Shown one piece after another: positions 2,856 to 45,454 of a stretch of DNA of 64,000 nt (the stretch's first letter is position 1; the number at the start of each line of letters is the position of its first letter). Source of the DNA: Eledone cirrhosa (taxonomy: Eukaryota). The notes beneath the pieces are model-generated. The model saw nothing but the letters and a program-made list of their open reading frames with translations, searched no databases and was not told the DNA's origin. Made by a program: the position numbers and the translations under genes. The stretch covers positions 232,128,001-232,192,000 of the forward strand of contig OZ024740.1 of the NCBI GenBank assembly GCA_964016885.1. The letters are read 5' to 3'.

Positions 2856-3175
2856 TTATAAAATAATTTATGTGATACCGATGCCTTCTCTACGTCATGT
2901 GCTGAATCAATTCGGACCAGATTAAAAAAAAAAATTCCCGATCTAAGGGATGCAACTCATGGTGTGAACATTTTTTATAGCAAATGCTTTAGTCTGATGT
3001 AGCATCTGATTACGAAGAACAAAATTGTACTTGCTATCCAGCACATCTTTCTGATTGCTGAGTGGATATCGGTGATATATCAGCTACTAGTTAGGTCCAG
3101 GTGTGTGCTGCGTGTCTGGTTAGCTGAAATGCACACACGTTATTAAGATAGTCGTTAGGATATAAAGAGATATTG

Positions 3176-3356
3176 GTTTCTTATATAGGCACACAAGTCC
3201 AGCAATTTGGGAGGAGGGGAAAGTTGATTAAATCGACGACAGTGCATGCCTGGTACTTTATTCTATCGACCCCGTCAGGATGAAAGATCATAAAGGGCCG
3301 TAACTCTATGCTGCAAAGCATGGCGTCCGACCCTCTACCGATATTGCTAATCCACC
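3176..3356 (-). mobile_element. tRNA-derived SINE (longer-tail variant, internal deletion)
   Basis: Matches the window's SINE family; 12-bp TSD aaagagatattg at 3164-3175 and 3357-3368. Confidence 0.85.
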
Positions 3357-11689: not shown

Positions 11690-11755
11690 TATTTTATCTG
11701 ATGAAAGCGCACCAAAATTTGACTTGGTTGCCCTTGAAATAAATATAATAAAATA
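11690..11755 (+). ncRNA. Minimal type I hammerhead ribozyme
   Basis: tattttat CTGATGA aagcgcaccaa..ttggttgccctt GAAA T-aaat-A TA ataaaata; 8-bp stem I. Confidence 0.8.
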
Positions 11756-20603: not shown

Positions 20604-20957
20604 GAAATATTAATAAATGAAAAATATCCTCATATTCAAAATATATATTTTATTATACATATTTCAAAGGTATAATGGTGTTTAAGTATGTTTTCATCAG
20701 ATAAAATATATGAGACTGGATATGCGAAATACGGTTTCGGTCTTGATTATTAAAACAGCCACTATTGGAATTGAATAATCAAAACCGTAGCGGTATGTCG
20801 CATATCCAATCCCCTATATATTTTATCTGATGAAAACGTACTTAAACACCATTGGACCTTTGAAATATGTATAATAAAATATATATTTTGATTATGAGAA
20901 TATTTTTCATTTATTAATATTTTGAATAATATTAAATACTCCAGAAATAACTGTCGA

Positions 20958-36978: not shown

Positions 36979-37017
36979 TGTATCTATATATATTCATATA
37001 TGTATCTATATAGATAC

Positions 37018-37222
37018 AGACATCCAGAGTTGACATTGCACTCAGTGCTCCTTTGGGAGCCCCTACATGGACACACTAGAAGAGGAAGACCAAGGTTAAC
37101 ATATGTTGATGCCCTAAGGACAGACACTGGTCTGTTGGAGATGTAGGATATGGCAGCGATAATGAGGGACAGAGACCGCTGGAGAGAACTCGTCCATGGA
37201 TCTCGGGAATTTTACCCGCCTT

Positions 37223-37224
<2 letters not shown>
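37018..37224 (+). mobile_element. RTE-clade LINE 3' end
   Basis: [49 protein letters not shown]; ends in (TA)n. Confidence 0.85.
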
Positions 37225-37291
<67 letters not shown>

Positions 37292-37616
37292 GACCGTTTC
37301 TCCTGTAAAAATATTTTTAGCAATTACAAAAGAGTAGAATTGTTTGCTCATTTTATATGTGACATTTTATTGTGAATTGTTGATAAATATCTATTTAGGT
37401 ATAGAAATGTATTTAAATGTTATTCGTGAAAGTTACAGTAAAATGAAATCCAAAATAAAACATTTTAGATGAAACTAATCTATTCTGTCTCTTTACAATA
37501 TATATTCTTTATTTTACGTTTCTATAAATTTCAAAACATGAATATTTCTTCAACGATCATTTTCAAACGTATTACATTTTTTTAAACAAATAAAGCCTAG
37601 ATGGGCATTGGAAAAT

Positions 37617-37803
37617 AATTGTTTCTACTTTGGCAAAAGGCCAGCAATTATCCCAGTGTATTACTGGTACTTTTATTTTATCGATCCCGTAAGGATGAAA
37701 GCAAAGTTAACCTCGGCGGGATTTGAACTCAGACCATAAAGGGACATAACTTTTTTTTGCTGGAAAGCATGGCGTCCGACCCTCTACCGATACTGCCAAT
37801 CCA
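37617..37803 (-). mobile_element. tRNA-derived SINE
   Basis: TSD ttggaaaataat at 37608-37619 and 37809-37820. Confidence 0.93.
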
Positions 37804-37876
37804 TGACCTTGGAAAATAATGCAAACTCTGAAGCAGTCTAATGGTTTTCTCTCTCTCTAAGTCTCCCTCTCCCCCT

Positions 37877-38015
<139 letters not shown>

Positions 38016-38804
38016 TTCGGTTTTTGATTTGTTTTGCAAGATTTCTTATCTGAAAACGTGTGTTGAGACAGATTGTTATAATTTGGAAGGGTCAATGCTA
38101 CCAATAAAAACACATGCACCTGTTGGTTTTCACTTCCGGTTGGTTAGTTCAATAACCGGATGGTTATTTACATATTGTCAACGTTCTGGGGCAGGACAGA
38201 ACAAAGGAGGGACACAAAATAAGAAAGCAGGCACTGGGGAGGTCACAAAATGTGTGACAAACGATATTGTATATTATATTTGTCCCAGTACATTTTTAAT
38301 CTGTTTCAAATATGTTTTTTTTCTTCTGAAGCTACGATACTTAAAAATTACTGTCTTCGGGGATAAATATAACAGTTTAACAAAAACAAAAGCGTTTCAA
38401 TTTATAAACACTGAAGAAGGGATTTTTTCTTCAATTTATACTAGCTACCTTCTGAAAAGAACAGAAATACAGTTGAATTATTTAAAACCTCATCAAAAGA
38501 CTCCGTTAGTTAGGACCGATTTTTTCCAAATTTACCGTTTAAGGTAGCCTACACTCATATATGTATCTAAGGTCATGTTTAAATATATGTGTGTTGCTAT
38601 ATGACTTTGTTCTAACTCCCTTACGGTTGAGTAAATTTAGGGGTTAACTAACTGCTTCTTCTAGCCACGAAGAAGGGTAGACTGGCCACCAGTCTACCCT
38701 TCACAACACTTCTATCTTGACCGCTAGCCACATGATAAGTTTCAACCCTTTCGAATATGTTACTAACAGCGATCACTTTCGAAAAAGTCGGTCCTAACTG
38801 AGGG

Positions 38805-38892
38805 AGTATCTTGATAAGCTTAAAGCATTATAGATAATGCAACACTTAGACATTTCCACTAAGTGCAAGCGAAACTGTCGACAGTCGGGACT
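38805..38892 (+). ncRNA. Type I hammerhead, U3-A8 variant with branched stem II
   Basis: agtatc TTGATAA gctt[gcatta/taatgc; cacttag/ctaagtg]aagc GAAA CTG-tcga-CAG TC gggact. Confidence 0.75.
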
Positions 38893-39083
38893 AGAGGATT
38901 ATTGGTAACATTTATCTATTATTTCTTCAAGCATACATTTTAAACTTAGCTCCGTTTAATTGATTATTTATTTAGTTAATTTTTACGGACCAAGAAAAAA
39001 GATTGGGTAAATTTTATCTGACTATTTTTCAAACTTATTATTTTTATATCGTTCTGATTAATAATTAATTATTTAATTCATTC

Positions 39084-39281
39084 ATTTATTGAGATTGAGT
39101 CGCACCATTGAAGGTCGCCTACACTTGTACATGTATCTATGCTGATGTTTAAATGTATGTGTGTTCCTTATGACATTATATATATATAATGTCATAAGGA
39201 ATATACATACATTTAAACATAAGCATAGATACATGTACGAGTGTAGGCGACCCTCAATGGTGCGACTCAATCTCAATAAAT
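39084..39281. repeat. ~95-bp-arm palindrome centred on a short (TA)n
   Basis: atttattgagattgagtcgcacc..atgacattata / tataatgtcat..ggtgcgactcaatctcaataaat with a few mismatches. Confidence 0.9.
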
Positions 39282-39361
39282 ATATATATATATATATATA
39301 TATTTATATGAACTCATAATCCTTTATTTACTGCTATATATATTTCGATGATAGCCATAGC

Positions 39362-39454
<93 letters not shown>

Positions 39455-39467
39455 ATGTATATATATG

Positions 39468-39522
<55 letters not shown>

Positions 39523-39593
39523 AAATATATATATATATATATATATATGTATAAATATATATATATATATATATGTATAAATATATATATATG

Positions 39594-39627
<34 letters not shown>

Positions 39628-39630
<3 letters not shown>

Positions 39631-39788
39631 AGGGCGGGTAAAATTCCCAAGAATTCCATGGACGAGTTCTCTCCAGCGGTCTCTGTCCCTCATTATCGCT
39701 GCCATGTCCTGCGTCTCGAACAGACCAGTGTCTGTCCTTAGGGCATCAACATACGTTAACGTTAGTCTTCCTCTTCCAGTGTGTCCAT
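39628..39788 (-). mobile_element. RTE-clade LINE 3' end, second copy
   Basis: Close reverse-complement match to 37066-37224. Confidence 0.85.
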
Positions 39789-39987
39789 AGTTATATATAT
39801 ATAGAGTTATATTTGGGGATGGTCATATTGTTATAATATTCCCAGAAATAATAAAAAAAAAACACACCCACTGTTTGGTTTCGATTTGCTTTCGTTTTTT
39901 TTTTATATCTCCCTAGTTAATTTAGCTGGCAATAAATGTTTATCATTGATTGACCAATGGTTAAACATACATATATAAATATATAGT

Positions 39988-40027
39988 GTATCAAAGTTCT
40001 TTCGATGTGTGACATCATCAGTGGTAC
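39988..40027 (-). ncRNA. Family I hammerhead with deleted stem II
   Basis: gtacca CTGATGA tgtcacacatc GAAA G-aa-C TT tgatac. Confidence 0.5.
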
Positions 40028-40211
40028 TATTATGTTTCCTCCCATTGTATTGTAATGTCTATGCCATTTTTATTTAATCAATTTATTTATTTATATTTAC
40101 CTTAGGTCAGTATTGTGTGTTTGGGCAGGGCTGTCGCTTTTTCTGTTCAACTTTGGTTTTCTTAGTTCCATTTCAGTTGCTTCTCTGATTCGTCTACCTG
40201 TTGAGTCATTC

Positions 40212-40299
<88 letters not shown>

Positions 40300-40443
40300 T
40301 AAAATAAAAGATTAAAGTTTAAGCAAAGAATCGTTGCTTTCACCCTTAACGGGATCTTCTGAAACTAACAAAGTCAATCTGTAAACGCAGAAGTGGATAT
40401 TATATATATATATATTACTATATATATATTACTATATATATAT

Positions 40444-40521
<78 letters not shown>

Positions 40522-40524
<3 letters not shown>

Positions 40525-40710
40525 AGGATTTAACCAGTCTTAAACTGGTAAGACCATTGTTGATCAGAGTACTCGATGCGTTGGATAGTAGAGTGGGAAT
40601 ATTAGAAACAGTAGGGGCCCGATGGCTGAGCCCTTGCCATTTCGACAGCCAATTCCAGACTGTTGAAGCGGCAAGAGTTCTGCAGTCGGACCCCCACCTC
40701 TTTCATTCGT
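40522..40710. mobile_element. Old family B foldback copy
   Basis: Degenerate match to 19255-19442. Confidence 0.6.
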
Positions 40711-42312
40711 ATATGTTTATATATATATAATATTTTCTTCAGGAATGAATAAGAGAGAGACTAGGTCTAAATGAGTACGTAATACATATTAATCCTTTTA
40801 ATTCGTAGATAATGTATATTTGTTGCGAAAGAAATGTATTGATACACTTTTTTGAAATAACCAGAGTTTTGTTAATTTTAACGTAGCATTCAAAATATTC
40901 AACAGCTTTTATTTCTACGTGTAATGGTTTAATGTCGAACCGAATTTTATGCACAGACACACGAACGGTGAAAAATAACCGTTCAGCATTGAGATTGATC
41001 GAATATTTTTTATTGCGAAGGAAATCCTCCGGCCTGACGTAGAGATAACCCTTTACAAAATAGCTTCATGGAATTGCTTGTCACAAATGTCTGACCTGCA
41101 TGAAACATTGACATAATTATGGAGAAACATTACCTCACAAACATCAATGTAAAGTTCGAAGATCAATTTTAAAAATCTTTCTAAATTTACTACATTCGTA
41201 TTCTTAATATACGTTAATCTATATTTTGTCCTCGCTCTATCTATTTTTGAAACGGTCTCTCCGCAGTTCACCCTATTCTCATTCTATATTGTGCTATCTT
41301 TCTTGTGAAAAATCTTTCTTTATCCAATACAAATGCTTATTTCTGTATATATATTGACAGTCAGCTTTCTTGATGAGTTCCTTCGAAAGAAACAGGTTTA
41401 GTCTTGTTGAAACCTTTTCTATATTATATATATATATCTATTATATATATATATATAATATATATATATATAATATATATATATACGCGTGTGTGTGTGT
41501 GTACTTATTTTTATGTCTGTATGTGTGTATGCATTTTGCATGTGATTACATATGTGTACGTGCATATTACGTGTGTGTGTGTACATAAGATGTGTTAGTA
41601 TTATAGCGAAAACAGCCGATCCAATATAAATTGTAAATAATTAATTGAACAAGAACCGAGTGAAAGGAAAATAAAACCAAAAGAAAATACATTGATTTAC
41701 TATTTAACTTTGACACTTCAATAGAAACACAGACGTATGTCCTTGCCGATGTGTGTTATGTAAGCGCGTTTGTGACTGTATGCGTTTCAGCCAGAGTAAT
41801 TGTATGTGTGTGAATCAGTGTGAGTTGTATGAAGCTCTATGAGTGACAGCTGGTGTGTGTGTGTGTGTGTATTTTCTGTTTGTATTTGTGCGTGTCTGAA
41901 TGTGTATGAGTGTGTATGCGTGCTAGTGTCAGTGTGAATGTAGGTATATGTATGTATGTGTCATTATGTGTGCATGTGAGTCTATATGCAAATTTATATT
42001 AGTATGTGTGTGTGAGTGTGTGTGTGTGTTTGTGTATCTGTGTGTGTGTGTGTTTGTGTGTGTAGCTATATTTAAAATATATGGGGGTATGATGTAAGTC
42101 TACCCCTCTGTGAATGTCTGATATTTTGTACATGCCTATATGCAGGAGTGTATGTAAATCAAACCGTCTTTAAAGTGCTCTTATATTCGGTCTTTACATG
42201 AAAGATGCTTGGAGTCCGTTCTAATATTTATATGGTTTTTCTTACAAACATTTTGCACGCACACACTCAAACACATAATCATAAATATGTAATATGAGAC
42301 GTGTGCACATGA

Positions 42313-42366
<54 letters not shown>

Positions 42367-42406
42367 GTATATGTATGCATATACATACACCACACACACA
42401 CACACA

Positions 42407-42460
<54 letters not shown>

Positions 42461-42462
<2 letters not shown>

Positions 42463-43648
42463 ATGAGAGGTACACAAATATATGTGTATTCATACATATA
42501 CATGCATATATACAATTTTTTTTTTCACAAGTATGTGAGATTGTGTGTTATCGACCTTAATCAGTGTTGCTCTATGATTATGAGAGACAAGATAATCGGA
42601 ATAATTAAATTGGCTCGATATCAGAGCTATGCAATATATTATAAAGTAAGAAGAAATATTAGACATAAATAAATACCTATTTTTTCTTCAAATTCCCGAC
42701 TGTACAGTTTCATGGCTACTATGCAAAAATCCTACATCATAAAGATGCAATATTGTTGTGAGGTAGGCCAACTTTGCAAGGGAACCCCTCAGGGAAAGAA
42801 CAATTTCAAACAGGTCTGCATCGCGCGAGAGAATCTCGAAAAGGCGGAGGGAAACACTATCACGTGATTCAGTGGTCAAGAAATGGGATTAAATCCCTTG
42901 TAGCGGTGAAAAATATCTCAGAAAGCGGAGGGGATGTTGATACGATACCGAAGCAACAGAAAGGTGGTAAGGTTGACTGGAAGTGTATATAGTATTTGCT
43001 TGAAATAGGTATTTATTTATGCCTAATATTTCTTCTTACTTTATAATATATTACATAGCTTTGATATCGAGTCAATTTAATTATTCCGATTATCTTGTCT
43101 CTCATAGTCATAGAGCAACACTGGTTAAGGTCGACAACACACAATCTCAGATACTTATGAAAAAAATATATGTGTATATATATGCATGTGTATATATGTA
43201 TACACATATTTGTGTACCTCTCATTACTATCTCTAACTCCCTCACGGTAGAGTAACCACGGAAGTATAGTGTCTGCTTTCAAGCAAATACTATATACACT
43301 TCCAGTCAACCTTACCACCCTTCTGTAGCCTCTGTATCGTATCAATATCCCCTCCGCCTTCTGAGATATGTTTCACTGCTACAAGGGATTTAATCCAATT
43401 TCTTGACCACTGTATCACGTGATAGTGTTTCCCTCCGCCTTTTCGAGATTCTCTCGCGCGATGCAGACCTGTTTGAAATTGTTCTTTCCCTGAGGTGTTC
43501 CCTTGAAAAGTAGGCCTACCTCACAAAAATGTTACCTCCCTATAATGTAGGATGTTTGCATAGTAGCCACGAAACTGTACAGTCGGGAATTTGAAGAAAA
43601 AATAGGTATTTATTTATGTCTAATATTTCTTCTTACTTTATAATATAT
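42461..43648. mobile_element. Head-to-head, circularly permuted copies of a ~597-nt HHR unit (family K)
   Basis: Minus part 42461-43005; plus part 43003-43648 with ~49-nt terminal direct repeat 597 nt apart. Confidence 0.85.
43497..43590 (+). ncRNA. Type I hammerhead, U3-A8 variant with long stem II
   Basis: gttccc TTGAAAA gt(a)ggc(c)tac..gtagccac GAAA CTG-ta-CAG TC gggaat; the minus twin (~42693-42786) reads TTGCAAA. Confidence 0.72.
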
Positions 43649-44129
43649 ATATTACATTAATAAAGATGGTGATGTTACATAACTCGTTTATTCTTTATAA
43701 TTATTTCAACGGTTCACCCATGCAATCAAGATGTAATTCATGCATTTCCTGTTATTATGAGAACGGTGTCCTCAGACGATTTTGTGATATGCTGTCGGCA
43801 TATCATGGAATAGGGATGGAGACACCCGTGGGTATTTCTTATAGGTCCTCTAAGATAACTAATCTGTTCAAAGTATCTTAATCAATCGTAATGTTTAAAT
43901 AAACGATTCATATTTTAAATATGAATTGTATATAAGACATTTTCGAACACACCGTATTAATGGAACGTAAAACAAATCTTCCCACGAGCGACATATACGA
44001 GATTCGACAATCAGGGGAGAACTTATTTCCTCTGAATTGGTCTTACATTATGCTTGCAAAACATAATCTCTTTCCTTACACACATACACCCCCTCTCTCT
44101 CTCTGTATATATGTGTGTCTGTGTGTGTG

Positions 44130-44197
<68 letters not shown>

Positions 44198-44798
44198 GAG
44201 AAAGGGAAAATGAAAGGCATTAGTAAAGCACCAGTAATGCACTGGGTCGATTACATCGACTTTCCTCTTCACTTAAAATTACTGGCCTTGTGCCTAAATC
44301 TGAGGCAATTATAACATATAGCTACTACTATGTGTTAATAATGGAGAACGAGGAAGGGTTCTAAATTTGTACTTTTTAAATCTCTTCTCTTTGATTTAAC
44401 TGAAACAGTCTAAATATTCTGGAAATGATTTTTAATGATTAAGATACTTTGAACGGGTGTTTCCATCTTTACTCCATGAAATTTGTTTCCACATAATGTT
44501 TTTAATAATGTACATTTTGAATGGGCTTTGCAGAGATTCGCTGTCGAAGGAGTGCATCACAATTAAGCATATGGAAATTTAAAATATACATTCGATAGTA
44601 TTTTTGCTGCATATTTCTGTTGGTATATTCTTTTAATATCGTATATCTTTGATCCGTATTTGTTATTATAGTAAACGTAAACTCGGAGTTTTATATCATT
44701 ATGCAAACCTGCCAACCTCTAAAACCCAAAGGGGGAATACCATGAAACAAAGTGCCCCAAATTGGGGAGAAATGGGGTAAAATGGAGAGATTTGACAT

Positions 44799-44986
44799 AA
44801 TTGTTTCTACTTTAGGCACAAGGCCAGCAATTACCCAGTGCATTACTGGTACTTTATTTTATCGACCCCGTAAGGATGAAAGGCAAAGTCAACCTCGGCG
44901 GGATTTGAACTCAGATCGTAAAGGGACGTAACTATGCTGGAAAGCATGGCGTCCGACCCTCTACCGATACTGCCAATCCACCACCC
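44799..44986 (-). mobile_element. tRNA-derived SINE
   Basis: 15-bp TSD gagatttgacataat at 44787-44801 and 44987-45001. Confidence 0.95.
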
Positions 44987-45454
44987 GAGATTTGACATAA
45001 TGAAAGCTATACCCATGTTCATAAGAGAAGACATCTCTCACCCACGGCAAAGTGGATGGGAGATCTACGCGTCGGACGGGGAGCGTTGGCAGGTCCAGTT
45101 ATGCCTTTCAATTTCATGTTGATAGATTTTGCACAGGAATATAATGCCCTTTCCATAGATATGAATAGCGTGCAAAAAAATAAAGAAAAAAAAGAAGAAA
45201 GAAATCACTGCAATAATCGTAATCCGCACCTTTGAATATACCTCTGCATAATTTGCTTTATTAAGAAAGTTATGGGGAAACATATTCGTGTGGGTAATTA
45301 TGGACTGTATGTATACGAACTACAGTTTAGGTATATTTCATAAACAAAAAAATACGGTACGCTCTAGAGCTATAATTCTGGACTGAAGTTGATACTGATA
45401 GAAAAGTCACAATATTTCTGTCATCTTTAATTTCCAATACATTTAGTTTCGCAT

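Follow-up and report, generated by a model that had tools for sequence, protein, structure and literature searches.

A head-to-head copy of a non-coding, hammerhead-bearing repeat family in Eledone cirrhosa, probably mobilized by Penelope-like elements

The segment at positions 42461–43648 of the window (i.e. the whole 64,000-nucleotide stretch of Eledone cirrhosa DNA that was analysed) is a head-to-head pair of arms, each derived from one permuted unit of 597 nt. We consider it probable that a non-coding retroelement family inserted here long ago and left a two-armed copy that is probably dead. The family was likely mobilized in trans by the reverse transcriptase (RT) and endonuclease (EN) of Penelope-like elements (PLEs), and its RNA carries a conserved type I hammerhead, with a U3-A8 core, whose self-cleavage is predicted. 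The initial annotation had read the segment as a retrozyme-like non-coding repeat, which our results support, and as an independent family, which they do not: the architecture, hammerhead, tail and a conserved box are shared by the family at this locus (family A) with at least two others, one in the window (family B) and one found at locus L086 (family C).

Architecture of the two-armed copy

With the unit (U) defined as 43003–43599, the locus is organized as follows.

42300..42460, no strand: (TA)n/(CA)n microsatellite, likely the target tract of the insertion
42461..43005, minus strand: minus arm, read from 43005 downward as U275..597 then U1..224 (547 nt); on the outside it has a 'P2'-type 3' end (...CCTCTCATTA), which adjoins the microsatellite
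43003..43648, plus strand: plus arm, U1..597 then U1..49 (646 nt, 1.08 units); on the outside it has a 'tail'-type 3' end (...TTTATAATATAT)
43003..43051, plus strand: first copy of the 49-nt terminal redundancy ('tail'), by direct-repeat comparison
43600..43648, plus strand: second copy of this redundancy, by the same comparison
43165..43226, plus strand: TA/TG-rich stretch, one of two TA-rich sites in the unit; it precedes the P2-type end (U224) and is internal to the plus arm here
43236..43253, plus strand: ACTC...GAGT hairpin, within a box (~43230–43255) conserved between families A and B
43260..43303, plus strand: imperfect palindrome of the unit, read directly, at whose centre the minus arm has its inner 5' end (U275)

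The two arms are evident from two inverted matches, i.e. 42634–43005 against 43277–43648 (372 nt, 94% complementary) and 42472–42682 against 43003–43213 (211 nt, 88% complementary), and they overlap by three bases at their junction (43003–43005). The two copies of the terminal redundancy are identical at 48 of 49 positions and lie 597 nt apart. The two arms of one permuted unit, the direct repeat and the hairpin had all been proposed from the sequence alone and are confirmed here. The direct repeat is also more than a one-off local duplication, as the permuted reading is found at many phases in other copies. The further proposal of one 597-nt circle holds for the permuted unit, but the circle itself does not follow, because PLEs are described as producing such permutation anyway (PMC8557442). 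When folded as a circle, the unit reaches −147.3 kcal/mol, compared with −110.0 ± 4.8 kcal/mol for 60 shuffles.

The region has a GC content of ~0.34, and the unit has no meaningful open reading frame (ORF), as first noticed: its longest frame (119 amino acids between stops) lacks a Pfam match and is not conserved in a 585-nt subfamily. A 228-amino-acid frame beside the family B copy (37861–38547) was rejected as a PLE ORF, being a microsatellite translation. Read contigs over 43230–43800 (two runs from one sample of unknown kind) have repeat-level depth with a few low-depth joints.

Hammerhead motifs in the window

Three predicted hammerheads, two in the arms and one in the family B copy, were located as follows.

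43498..43589, plus strand: predicted type I hammerhead with U3-A8 core (sequence, model match and covariation)
43498–43502 and 43585–43589, plus strand: 5' and 3' strands of its helix I
43503–43509, plus strand: its core TTGAAAA
43510–43570, plus strand: its helix II (61 nt, one bulged base)
43571–43574, plus strand: its GAAA (G12–A14 at 43571–43573)
43574–43583, plus strand: its palindromic helix III
43584, plus strand: its C17, with predicted cleavage between C43584 and G43585
42693..42784, minus strand: mirror hammerhead in the minus arm, matched by the model at 42793–42682 (106.3 bits), with predicted cleavage between 42698 and 42697
38557..38990, plus strand: family B copy (BLAST and covariance-model match)
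38797–38902, plus strand: family B hammerhead (83.4 bits), core TTGATAA, helix II closed by GCTT/AAGC and helix III loop TCGA, with predicted cleavage between 38886 and 38887

The U3-A8 hammerhead-like motif thus lies where it was first noticed in the plus arm; it is of type I with helix I open, and all conserved core positions are present. A hammerhead had been assigned to both arms, which stands in full for the plus arm only: the core of the minus arm reads TTGCAAA, which alters A6, and U replaces C11.1, so that this motif is probably inactive. Since each arm contains a single hammerhead, the copy would be unable to release a unit-length RNA, and together with the mutated minus-arm core this suggests that it is probably a dead insertion.

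The window contains the 18-base 3' half of the hammerhead twice, compared with an expectation of 0.04 occurrences in shuffles. Rfam hammerhead families gave no match at the gathering threshold across the window and none at E values up to 10 in 37000–45000. This silence likely results from the combination of a U3-A8 core with a 61-nt helix II, and such elements are therefore under-counted by current Rfam models. Weak microRNA-like Rfam matches on TA/TG repeats and palindromes were dismissed as low-complexity artefacts. The hammerhead fold of the window copy has an energy of −15.9 kcal/mol, while the local optimum is more stable (−19.8 kcal/mol).

Conservation of the hammerhead across families

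The conserved hammerhead core is C3/U3 U4 G5 A6 N7 G8/A8 A9, G12 A13 A14, A15.1-U16.1 and H17 (numbering as in PMC4209133). Among 111 copies, U3 is present in 102, U4 in 97, G5 in 95, A6 in 102, A8 in 102 and A9 in 100, while N7 is free (U in 68, A in 30). On the 3' side, G12 is present in 109, A13, A14 and U16.1 in all 111 and C17 in 109; conservation in this half partly reflects sample selection, as it was the search key for 60 loci.

Pairing is found in 90.6% of cells across 51 sequences and 15 pairs, compared with 23–43% when the partner is slid, and at one helix II pair 29 of these sequences have G-C, nine have C-G and seven have U-A. In an alignment of 110 distinct sequences (A2) fitted to the covariance model, the corresponding values are 88.0% and 21–38%. 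Double-sided changes occur at 10 of the 15 pairs in these 110 sequences, which was reached by none of 500 shuffles. The covariation as a whole represents few independent events, since the sample comprises only three families with a small number of subfamilies. Helix I is weak, with one particular pair not formed in 48 of the 110 sequences and only four contiguous pairs in the 585-nt subfamily.

The relative noticed near 38550–38990 is indeed a distant one, as 38557–38634 matches U176–253 at 72% by BLAST and the covariance model recovers its hammerhead. Families A, B and C are ~60–72% identical outside the hammerhead core, the core varies only at position 7, and the motif has the same position relative to the tail in all three. 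Family C contributes compensatory changes in helices I and III. As judged from these alignments, three diverged families retain the core and three helices, and compensatory changes affect helices I, II and III.

Copy number and anatomy of the family

The 18-base 3' half has 364 exact matches in the 3-Gb genome (its reversed control has none), and a search with the unit gave 97 matches from 1491 first-look candidates. The hundreds of copies are dispersed over many chromosomes and have individual flanks. Copies of the young 585-nt subfamily are 95–99% identical to its reference copy. Anatomy was studied in 51 unique loci that comprise 80 arms of at least 75 nt. Their outer 3' ends fall at two fixed sites, tail (42 arms) and P2 (30 arms), with eight others, and (TA)5 or longer lies within 40 nt past the 3' end in 59 of the 80 arms. 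By contrast, the inner 5' ends are variable, with a concentration at c1–50 (21 of 80 arms, 6.8 expected).

Arm lengths range from <0.5 to 1.45 units. Most copies are no longer than 1.45 units; long tandem arrays are rare, and none was seen among the 80 arms. Two full-scoring tandem hammerheads are present in four loci (L006, L011, L014 and L019). The terminal repeats represent variable redundancy rather than long terminal repeats (LTRs), and the two unit termini do not form an inverted repeat.

Among 26 head-to-head two-armed copies, 22 have one tail and one P2 end, and none has two tail or two P2 ends. The first 100 listed matches of the 18-mer include 14 neighbour pairs within 3 kb, of which 12 are −/+ (5' ends facing), two are +/+ (spaced by 585–593 nt) and none is +/− (tail-to-tail). 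This polarity fits the hammerhead-sense strand as the copied RNA.

Resident Penelope-like elements

PLEs are abundant in the genome, which contains 10596 GIY-YIG candidates; 150 were scored and all were above the Pfam cut-off. An intact PLE (L092) consists of a 938-amino-acid open frame between two 1.07-kb direct repeats, each of which (pseudo-LTR) contains a minimal U3-A8 hammerhead, and the element ends in (TA)n. By motif scan, U3-A8 motifs are present in four of 35 PLE loci (L061, L085, L092 and L093), a loose form of the scan having also flagged doubtful TA-rich matches (L092 at 1630 and 2202, and L094). Homology between the unit and PLEs was absent in these 35 loci, searched by BLAST with units A and B and with covariance model R1; as more than 10,000 candidates exist, this is a weak negative. 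The one match, at locus L086, was rejected as a partner PLE, because it is a separate family C insertion in a microsatellite behind a decayed PLE.

The (TA)n preference is citable for Naiads, which have an N-terminal EN, whereas the longest open PLE frames found here have a C-terminal endonuclease, an observation that runs against PLE-dependent mobilization.

Mobilization and competing explanations

According to Craig et al. (2021, PMC8557442), PLEs insert as 5'-truncated partial tandems that often have a tail at just one end and a further 5'-truncated copy in inverted orientation, and (TA)n is the preferred target of Naiads. The present family carries the same signature, i.e. a fixed 3' end, 5' truncation, a partial-tandem terminal repeat, a neighbouring inverted copy that is itself truncated at its 5' end, an extension of one end alone and a (TA)n target. 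It differs in having no RT/EN ORF, and its one-end extension is ~170 nt (tail to P2 end), compared with 30–40 bp in the PLEs of that account.

We propose the following sequence of events. Transcription would start from copies with two tandem hammerheads; the RNA would self-cleave after C17, possibly in a dimeric form that pairs through its palindromic helix III, and the unit-length RNA would perhaps be circularized by a host ligase. The PLE enzyme would nick a (TA)n tract, where TA-rich sites of the RNA could anneal and prime reverse transcription. The opposite side of the break would prime synthesis of a second, inverted arm, and microhomology would join the two 5' ends, as may be represented by the three bases at 43003–43005 in the window.

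A more specific version, which we put forward tentatively and regard as doubtful on balance, is that reverse transcription is primed by both sides of one PLE-made (TA)n break on one and the same hammerhead-processed RNA circle, with a different one of the two TA-rich sites used by each side. It would explain (i) the pairing of one tail with one P2 end in 22 of 26 copies and never two ends alike; (ii) arms longer than one unit; and (iii) the accumulation of 5' ends just past one full turn. If true, the family would document in the genome that a telomerase-like RT carries out rolling-circle reverse transcription.

Two other origins of the inverted arms were rejected. Snap-back (hairpin self-priming) is at odds with the inner 5' ends of the two arms, which usually differ, and twin priming on one circle with no displacement is inadequate as a full account, because both arms in the window are long (547 and 646 nt).

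The most serious competitor, in our view unlikely, retains the PLE-dependent retroelement but takes the hammerhead-like junction as inactive, either a relic or a signal for the PLE enzyme, with no RNA circle; permuted copies longer than one unit would then arise from linear transcripts of partial-tandem masters followed by PLE integration. It gains from the 5' ends, which show no peak at the predicted cleavage site: only one of 80 arms ends within 3 nt of it, against 0.8 expected, so that a cleavage footprint is absent among these arms. The concentration at c1–50 would also be expected if transcription started in the upstream repeat, as described for Penelope and Chlamys, and PLEs with or without a canonical hammerhead (e.g. 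Naiads) are reported to yield partial tandems and inverted copies (PMC8557442). Minimal PLE hammerheads are moreover described as poorly active in vitro (PMC4209133), and the window copy's hammerhead fold is not its local energy optimum. Against an inactive junction are the exact core kept in three families that are only ~60–72% identical elsewhere, in which only the free position 7 varies, the compensatory changes in all three helices, and the cleavage and circularization reported as demonstrated for related animal retrozymes (PMC7229834).

A structure made at the DNA level and without an RNA intermediate, i.e. a local satellite or foldback duplication by replication slippage or inversion, or a DNA transposon with internal repeats, is disfavoured and appears highly improbable. 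The locus is a large imperfect palindrome beside microsatellites, and the minus arm ends at the centre of the palindrome at 43260–43303, as such an origin might lead one to expect. However, the family has hundreds of dispersed copies on many chromosomes with their own flanks, a single polarity with fixed 3' and variable 5' ends, termini that are not mutual inverted repeats, no transposase-like ORF in the unit and head-to-head but never tail-to-tail copies.

A chance likeness to a hammerhead within an ordinary SINE-like repeat, for which the silent Rfam models and the ease with which relaxed descriptors match AT-rich DNA (as in our own loose scan) could be cited, is very implausible, given that families A, B and C retain the core and helices and show compensatory changes, that the motif-to-tail placement is equal in all three and that the pseudo-LTRs of the resident PLE contain the same U3-A8 core.

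Comparison with known retrozymes and PLE hammerheads

The closest known systems are retrozymes and PLEs. As in the animal non-LTR retrozymes described in PMC7229834 and 10.64898/2026.07.22.740005, the family is a non-coding, low-GC repeat with one type I hammerhead per unit, direct unit repeats, no LTR or ORF, a proposed PLE dependence and a strongly self-complementary unit. It departs from the long tandem arrays described for them, as its copies are mostly of 1.0–1.45 units with an inverted partner, and from their hammerheads in its U3-A8 core and a helix II of 53–61 nt. The unit had been called long for its class. At 585–597 nt it lies above the 170–400 nt given for animal retrozymes by Cervera and de la Pena (2020, PMC7229834) but inside the 51–972 bp given in the preprint of Li, Clavereau and Pollet (2026, 10.64898/2026.07.22.740005), so that the description is valid only for the narrower range.

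The PLE hammerheads described in PMC4209133 have U3-A8 covariation, a helix I of 4–5 bp, a bulged helix II base and a small palindromic helix III, and U3-A8 hammerheads are already described there in PLEs, including Cercyon of Schistosoma mansoni. The present motif shares with these minimal hammerheads (i) U3-A8 in place of C3-G8; (ii) a helix I of 4–6 bp without a defined loop 1; (iii) a base bulged out of helix II close to its 5' side; (iv) a short palindromic helix III that would allow a dimer; and (v) frequent opposite-strand pairs 100–700 bp apart. It differs in lying in a 585–597-nt non-coding unit rather than in the pseudo-LTR of an ORF-bearing element, in its 61-nt helix II (~13 nt in the resident PLE L092) and in a helix III of three to four pairs, where the minimal PLE hammerheads described have zero to two.

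The plant LTR retrozymes described by Cervera et al. (2016, PMC4918200) are likewise non-autonomous and hammerhead-bearing, with an RNA of 600–1000 nt proposed to circularize. They have type III hammerheads in true LTRs, a primer-binding site (PBS) together with a polypurine tract (PPT), and depend on Gypsy-type enzymes; none of that architecture is seen here.

The family adds an invertebrate-style example to the view of animal hammerhead retrozymes as non-autonomous riders on PLEs, which the 2026 preprint (10.64898/2026.07.22.740005) argues for vertebrates while leaving other animals open. Two features go slightly beyond the literature consulted: the combination of a PLE-type U3-A8 core with a helix II of 53–61 nt, and a regular end rule by which each two-armed copy has one tail and one P2 end, both in (TA)n. 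Any model of the way in which PLE enzymes deal with the two sides of a break has to accommodate this rule. In genome annotation, we recommend masking these loci as PLE-type repeats and not interpreting them as the microRNA-like hairpins suggested by the weak Rfam matches.

Organization of the window copy

Repeat search resolves a two-armed copy of a dispersed repeat (hereafter family A) into the following parts, mapped onto its 597-nt unit (U, 43003-43599):

42461-43648, two-armed copy, arms in opposite orientation and meeting at 43003-43005
43003 onwards, plus strand, plus arm, U1-597 followed by U1-49
43005 down to 42461, minus strand, minus arm, U275-597 followed by U1-224
43236-43253, ACTC/GAGT hairpin

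This mapping, a 49-nt direct repeat (43003-43051 and 43600-43648; 48/49 identical, spacing 597) and two inverted pairs in the window (42634-43005 vs 43277-43648, 372 nt, 94%; 42472-42682 vs 43003-43213, 211 nt, 88%) bear out the reading of the initial annotation, i.e. two permuted arms of one 597-nt unit. The hairpin that it described is likewise present, and its view that the unit lacks a meaningful ORF holds: the longest frame, 119 aa between stops, lacks a Pfam match and is shortened to 81 aa in a younger, 585-nt subfamily. The copy has one of the two outer 3'-end types of family A at each extremity (P2 at 42461, in (TA)n/(CA)n, and tail at 43648), with an overlap of 3 bases at the inner joint. 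It is old: identity is 88-94% between its arms and 92% to its nearest relative. Given this age, the single hammerhead per arm and a mutation at A6 of the minus-arm core, it is very probably inert.

Just outside the element, 43650-43770 has the highest contig depth in two read runs (up to about 17,000, vs 200-1,600 over most of the unit), so this flank is part of another, far more abundant repeat.

Hammerhead structure and conservation

The predicted plus-strand hammerhead has a U3-A8 core in place of C3-G8:

43498-43502 with 43585-43589, plus strand, helix I, five pairs
43503-43509, plus strand, core TTGAAAA (U3 U4 G5 A6 A7 A8 A9)
43510-43570, plus strand, helix II, closed by G-C, U-A, a bulged base, G-C, G-C and C-G
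43571-43573, plus strand, G12 A13 A14
43574-43583, plus strand, helix III, a 10-base palindrome
43584, plus strand, C17, with cleavage predicted after it

Rfam models give no hammerhead match in the window at the gathering threshold, or in 37000-45000 at E up to 10. Comparison among copies suggests that the motif is genuine and conserved as a structure. The stem that closes helix II varies among subfamilies and families yet stays paired (GU(N)GG/CCAC, GCUGG/CCAGC, GCUCG/CGAGC and GCUUG/CAAGC). In 51 copies aligned with MAFFT, 90.6% of cells are paired vs 23-43% with the partner slid, and one helix II pair occurs as three Watson-Crick types (G-C 29, C-G 9, U-A 7). Among 110 distinct copies, in an alignment biased towards the model used for fitting, the values are 88.0% vs 21-38%; both-side changes affect 10 of the 15 pairs (shuffle mean 5.0; 10 reached by 0/500 shuffles), with few lineages and hence few independent events in the sample. 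Core letters are retained in 95-111 of 111 copies and N7 alone varies freely, the 3' half of the hammerhead having been the query by which 60 loci were chosen. Pairing in helix I is weak, with one pair unpaired in 48/110 sequences, and the hammerhead fold of the window copy (-15.9 kcal/mol) is less stable than a rival local fold (-19.8).

Family size and related families

The window locus is one copy of a dispersed family. A search of the 3.0-Gb host genome with the unit gave 97 scored matches, out of 1491 first-look candidates, at 83-92% identity; an 18-mer from the 3' half of the hammerhead has 364 exact matches, and its reversed control none. Family A comprises at least three subfamilies, including that of the window (597 nt) and the 585-nt one, whose copies are 95-99% identical to a reference drawn from a tandem copy. 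The distant relative noted at 38550-38990 is indeed there, as a member of a second family (B), and a covariance model detected a third (C), about 60-65% identical to family A, in locus L086:

38557-38990 of the window, family B copy, same plan as family A
L086 2271-3264 (assembly G000, C2:60810456-60811449), head-to-head family C insertion, same plan as family A
L086 2620-2513, minus strand, and 3103-3210, plus strand, family C hammerheads, helix I CCTC/GAGG, helix III loop ACGU

Family B's own motif has 53 exact matches, and one tandem of this family shows a 719-nt spacing. Family C, inserted in a TA/TG microsatellite behind a decayed Penelope-like element (PLE) ORF, shows compensatory changes, with C-G replaced by U-A in helix I and G-C by A-U in helix III.

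A further family A copy lies about 2.2-3.0 kb past the window end (G000 C1:232194200-232195018). Two 3' halves of the hammerhead lie in it in the same direction at a distance of 593 nt; judging from this arrangement, the copy could release unit-length RNA.

A short, very common repeat at 37740-37800, containing ...GGCGTCCGACCCTCTACCGATACTGCC... in either orientation, often lies beside or inside family A copies and also in the flanks of loci L012, L020, L025, L098 and L119; it may be a tRNA-derived SINE.

Ends, arms and orientation

We compared 80 arms of at least 75 nt from 51 unique loci (30 picked by whole-unit similarity, the others by the 18-mer; nine duplicates removed), using references that begin at the predicted cleavage site. 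The 3' ends are mostly of tail type (42/80, 40-75 nt past the site) or P2 type (30/80, 210-245 nt past it), with eight elsewhere, and (TA)5 or more follows within 40 nt in 59 of the 80. The 5' ends are variable: 21 fall in the first 50 nt past the site (uniform expectation 6.8) and 24 in the last 105 nt (14.2), with no peak at the predicted site itself (one arm within 3 nt; 0.8 expected). Arm length ranges from under 0.5 to 1.45 units, and 21 arms of 0.95-1.15 units form a class with short terminal redundancy (e.g. the 49 nt of the window copy). The copies combine fixed 3' ends with ragged 5' ends in a single polarity, that of the hammerhead-sense strand, which points to this strand as the one reverse-transcribed.

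Head-to-head copies pair one tail with one P2 end in 22/26 cases, have one atypical end in four and never two ends of one kind; by our arithmetic, 22/22 mixed pairs would arise from independent draws with a chance of about 1e-7. Among the first 100 listed 18-mer matches, 14 neighbour pairs lie within 3 kb: 12 in -/+ arrangement, their 5' ends towards each other, two direct (585-593 nt apart) and none tail to tail.

Relation to Penelope-like elements

PLE insertions, as listed by Craig et al. 2021 (PMC8557442), show (i) strong 5' truncation and frequent partial tandems forming a pseudo-LTR; (ii) an inverted 5'-truncated copy often beside the 5' end; and (iii) a 30-40-bp tail at one end only, with Naiads favouring (TA)n targets. 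Every feature in this list also occurs in family A, but its one-end extension is about 170 nt (tail end to P2 end). According to Cervera and de la Pena 2014 (PMC4209133), PLE hammerheads show U3-A8 covariation (about 1,300 matches in Schistosoma mansoni); helix I is short, helix II has a bulged base, and helix III is small and palindromic, which permits a dimeric ribozyme, while activity in vitro is low. Family A shares these four structural traits; unlike those described there, its helix II is long (61 nt; 53 nt in family B) and helix III has 3-4 pairs.

PLEs abound in this genome, with 10596 GIY-YIG candidates, of which all 150 that were scored exceed the Pfam cut-off; five long loci examined have open frames of 604-1096 aa with the endonuclease domain at the end. 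One of them, an apparently intact PLE with C-terminal endonuclease (L092; G000 C1:145867500-145877400, minus strand), contains a 938-aa frame flanked by two direct repeats of 1.07 kb (pseudo-LTRs, 97.8% identical). Each repeat contains a minimal U3-A8 hammerhead about 165 nt before the 3' end (4-bp helix I, core TTGAAAA, 4-bp helix II, palindromic helix III), and the element's 3' end runs into (TA)n. Thus, this genome contains both enzymes of suitable target preference and elements that share the core variant. No partner PLE with homology to family A was found in 35 PLE loci by BLAST or with the covariance model, the sole match being the separate family C insertion in L086.

Family A is a further case of an already described kind of element: U3-A8 PLE hammerheads have been in print since 2014 (PMC4209133) and animal retrozymes since 2020 (PMC7229834), and a PLE derivation of retrozymes is proposed in a 2026 preprint, for vertebrates only (10.64898/2026.07.22.740005). 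The annotated unit was called long for its class, which stands against the 170-400 nt given in the 2020 paper but not against the 51-972 bp given in the preprint.

Proposed mechanism

We propose that rare copies with two tandem hammerheads would be transcribed; four loci (L006, L011, L014 and L019) have two full-scoring hammerheads 585-597 nt apart. The RNA would cut itself after C17, perhaps via a dimer through the palindromic helix III, and the unit-length product may be closed into a circle by a host ligase; such circularization has been shown in other animal retrozymes (PMC7229834). The circular fold of the unit is far more stable than those of shuffles (-147.3 vs -110.0 +/- 4.8 kcal/mol). 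A PLE endonuclease would then nick a (TA)n tract, to which the RNA may anneal by one of its two TA-rich sites, and a PLE reverse transcriptase would copy the RNA, sometimes past one unit; the other side of the break could prime a second arm at the remaining TA-rich site, and the 5' ends of both arms would be joined. The structure of the window copy agrees with such a two-sided insertion.

The absence of 5' ends from the predicted cleavage site argues against the usual template being a cleaved linear RNA, and is equally compatible with a circle and with an uncleaved tandem transcript. Because of this neutrality, the main rival is the same PLE-dependent element without any circle, its hammerhead being a relic or a recognition structure, which we regard as unlikely.

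Other features of the window

A pattern scan identified four hammerhead-like motifs with canonical cores (CTGATGA/CTGACGA, GAAA; helix I of 7-12 pairs):

11698-11747, plus strand
20827-20873, plus strand
20700-20654, minus strand
20484-20426, minus strand

Around 20700-20830 two of the motifs lie face to face, and Rfam at the gathering threshold reports none of the four; they are presumably the first and second permuted units of the initial annotation. A near-perfect 180-nt palindrome at 39093-39272 has weak MIR530/MIR1513-like Rfam scores (60 and 47 bits, below gathering); it looks like a foldback or MITE-like repeat rather than a microRNA gene. Between two microsatellites, an open stretch at 37020-37210 resembles the C terminus of a LINE-type ORF.
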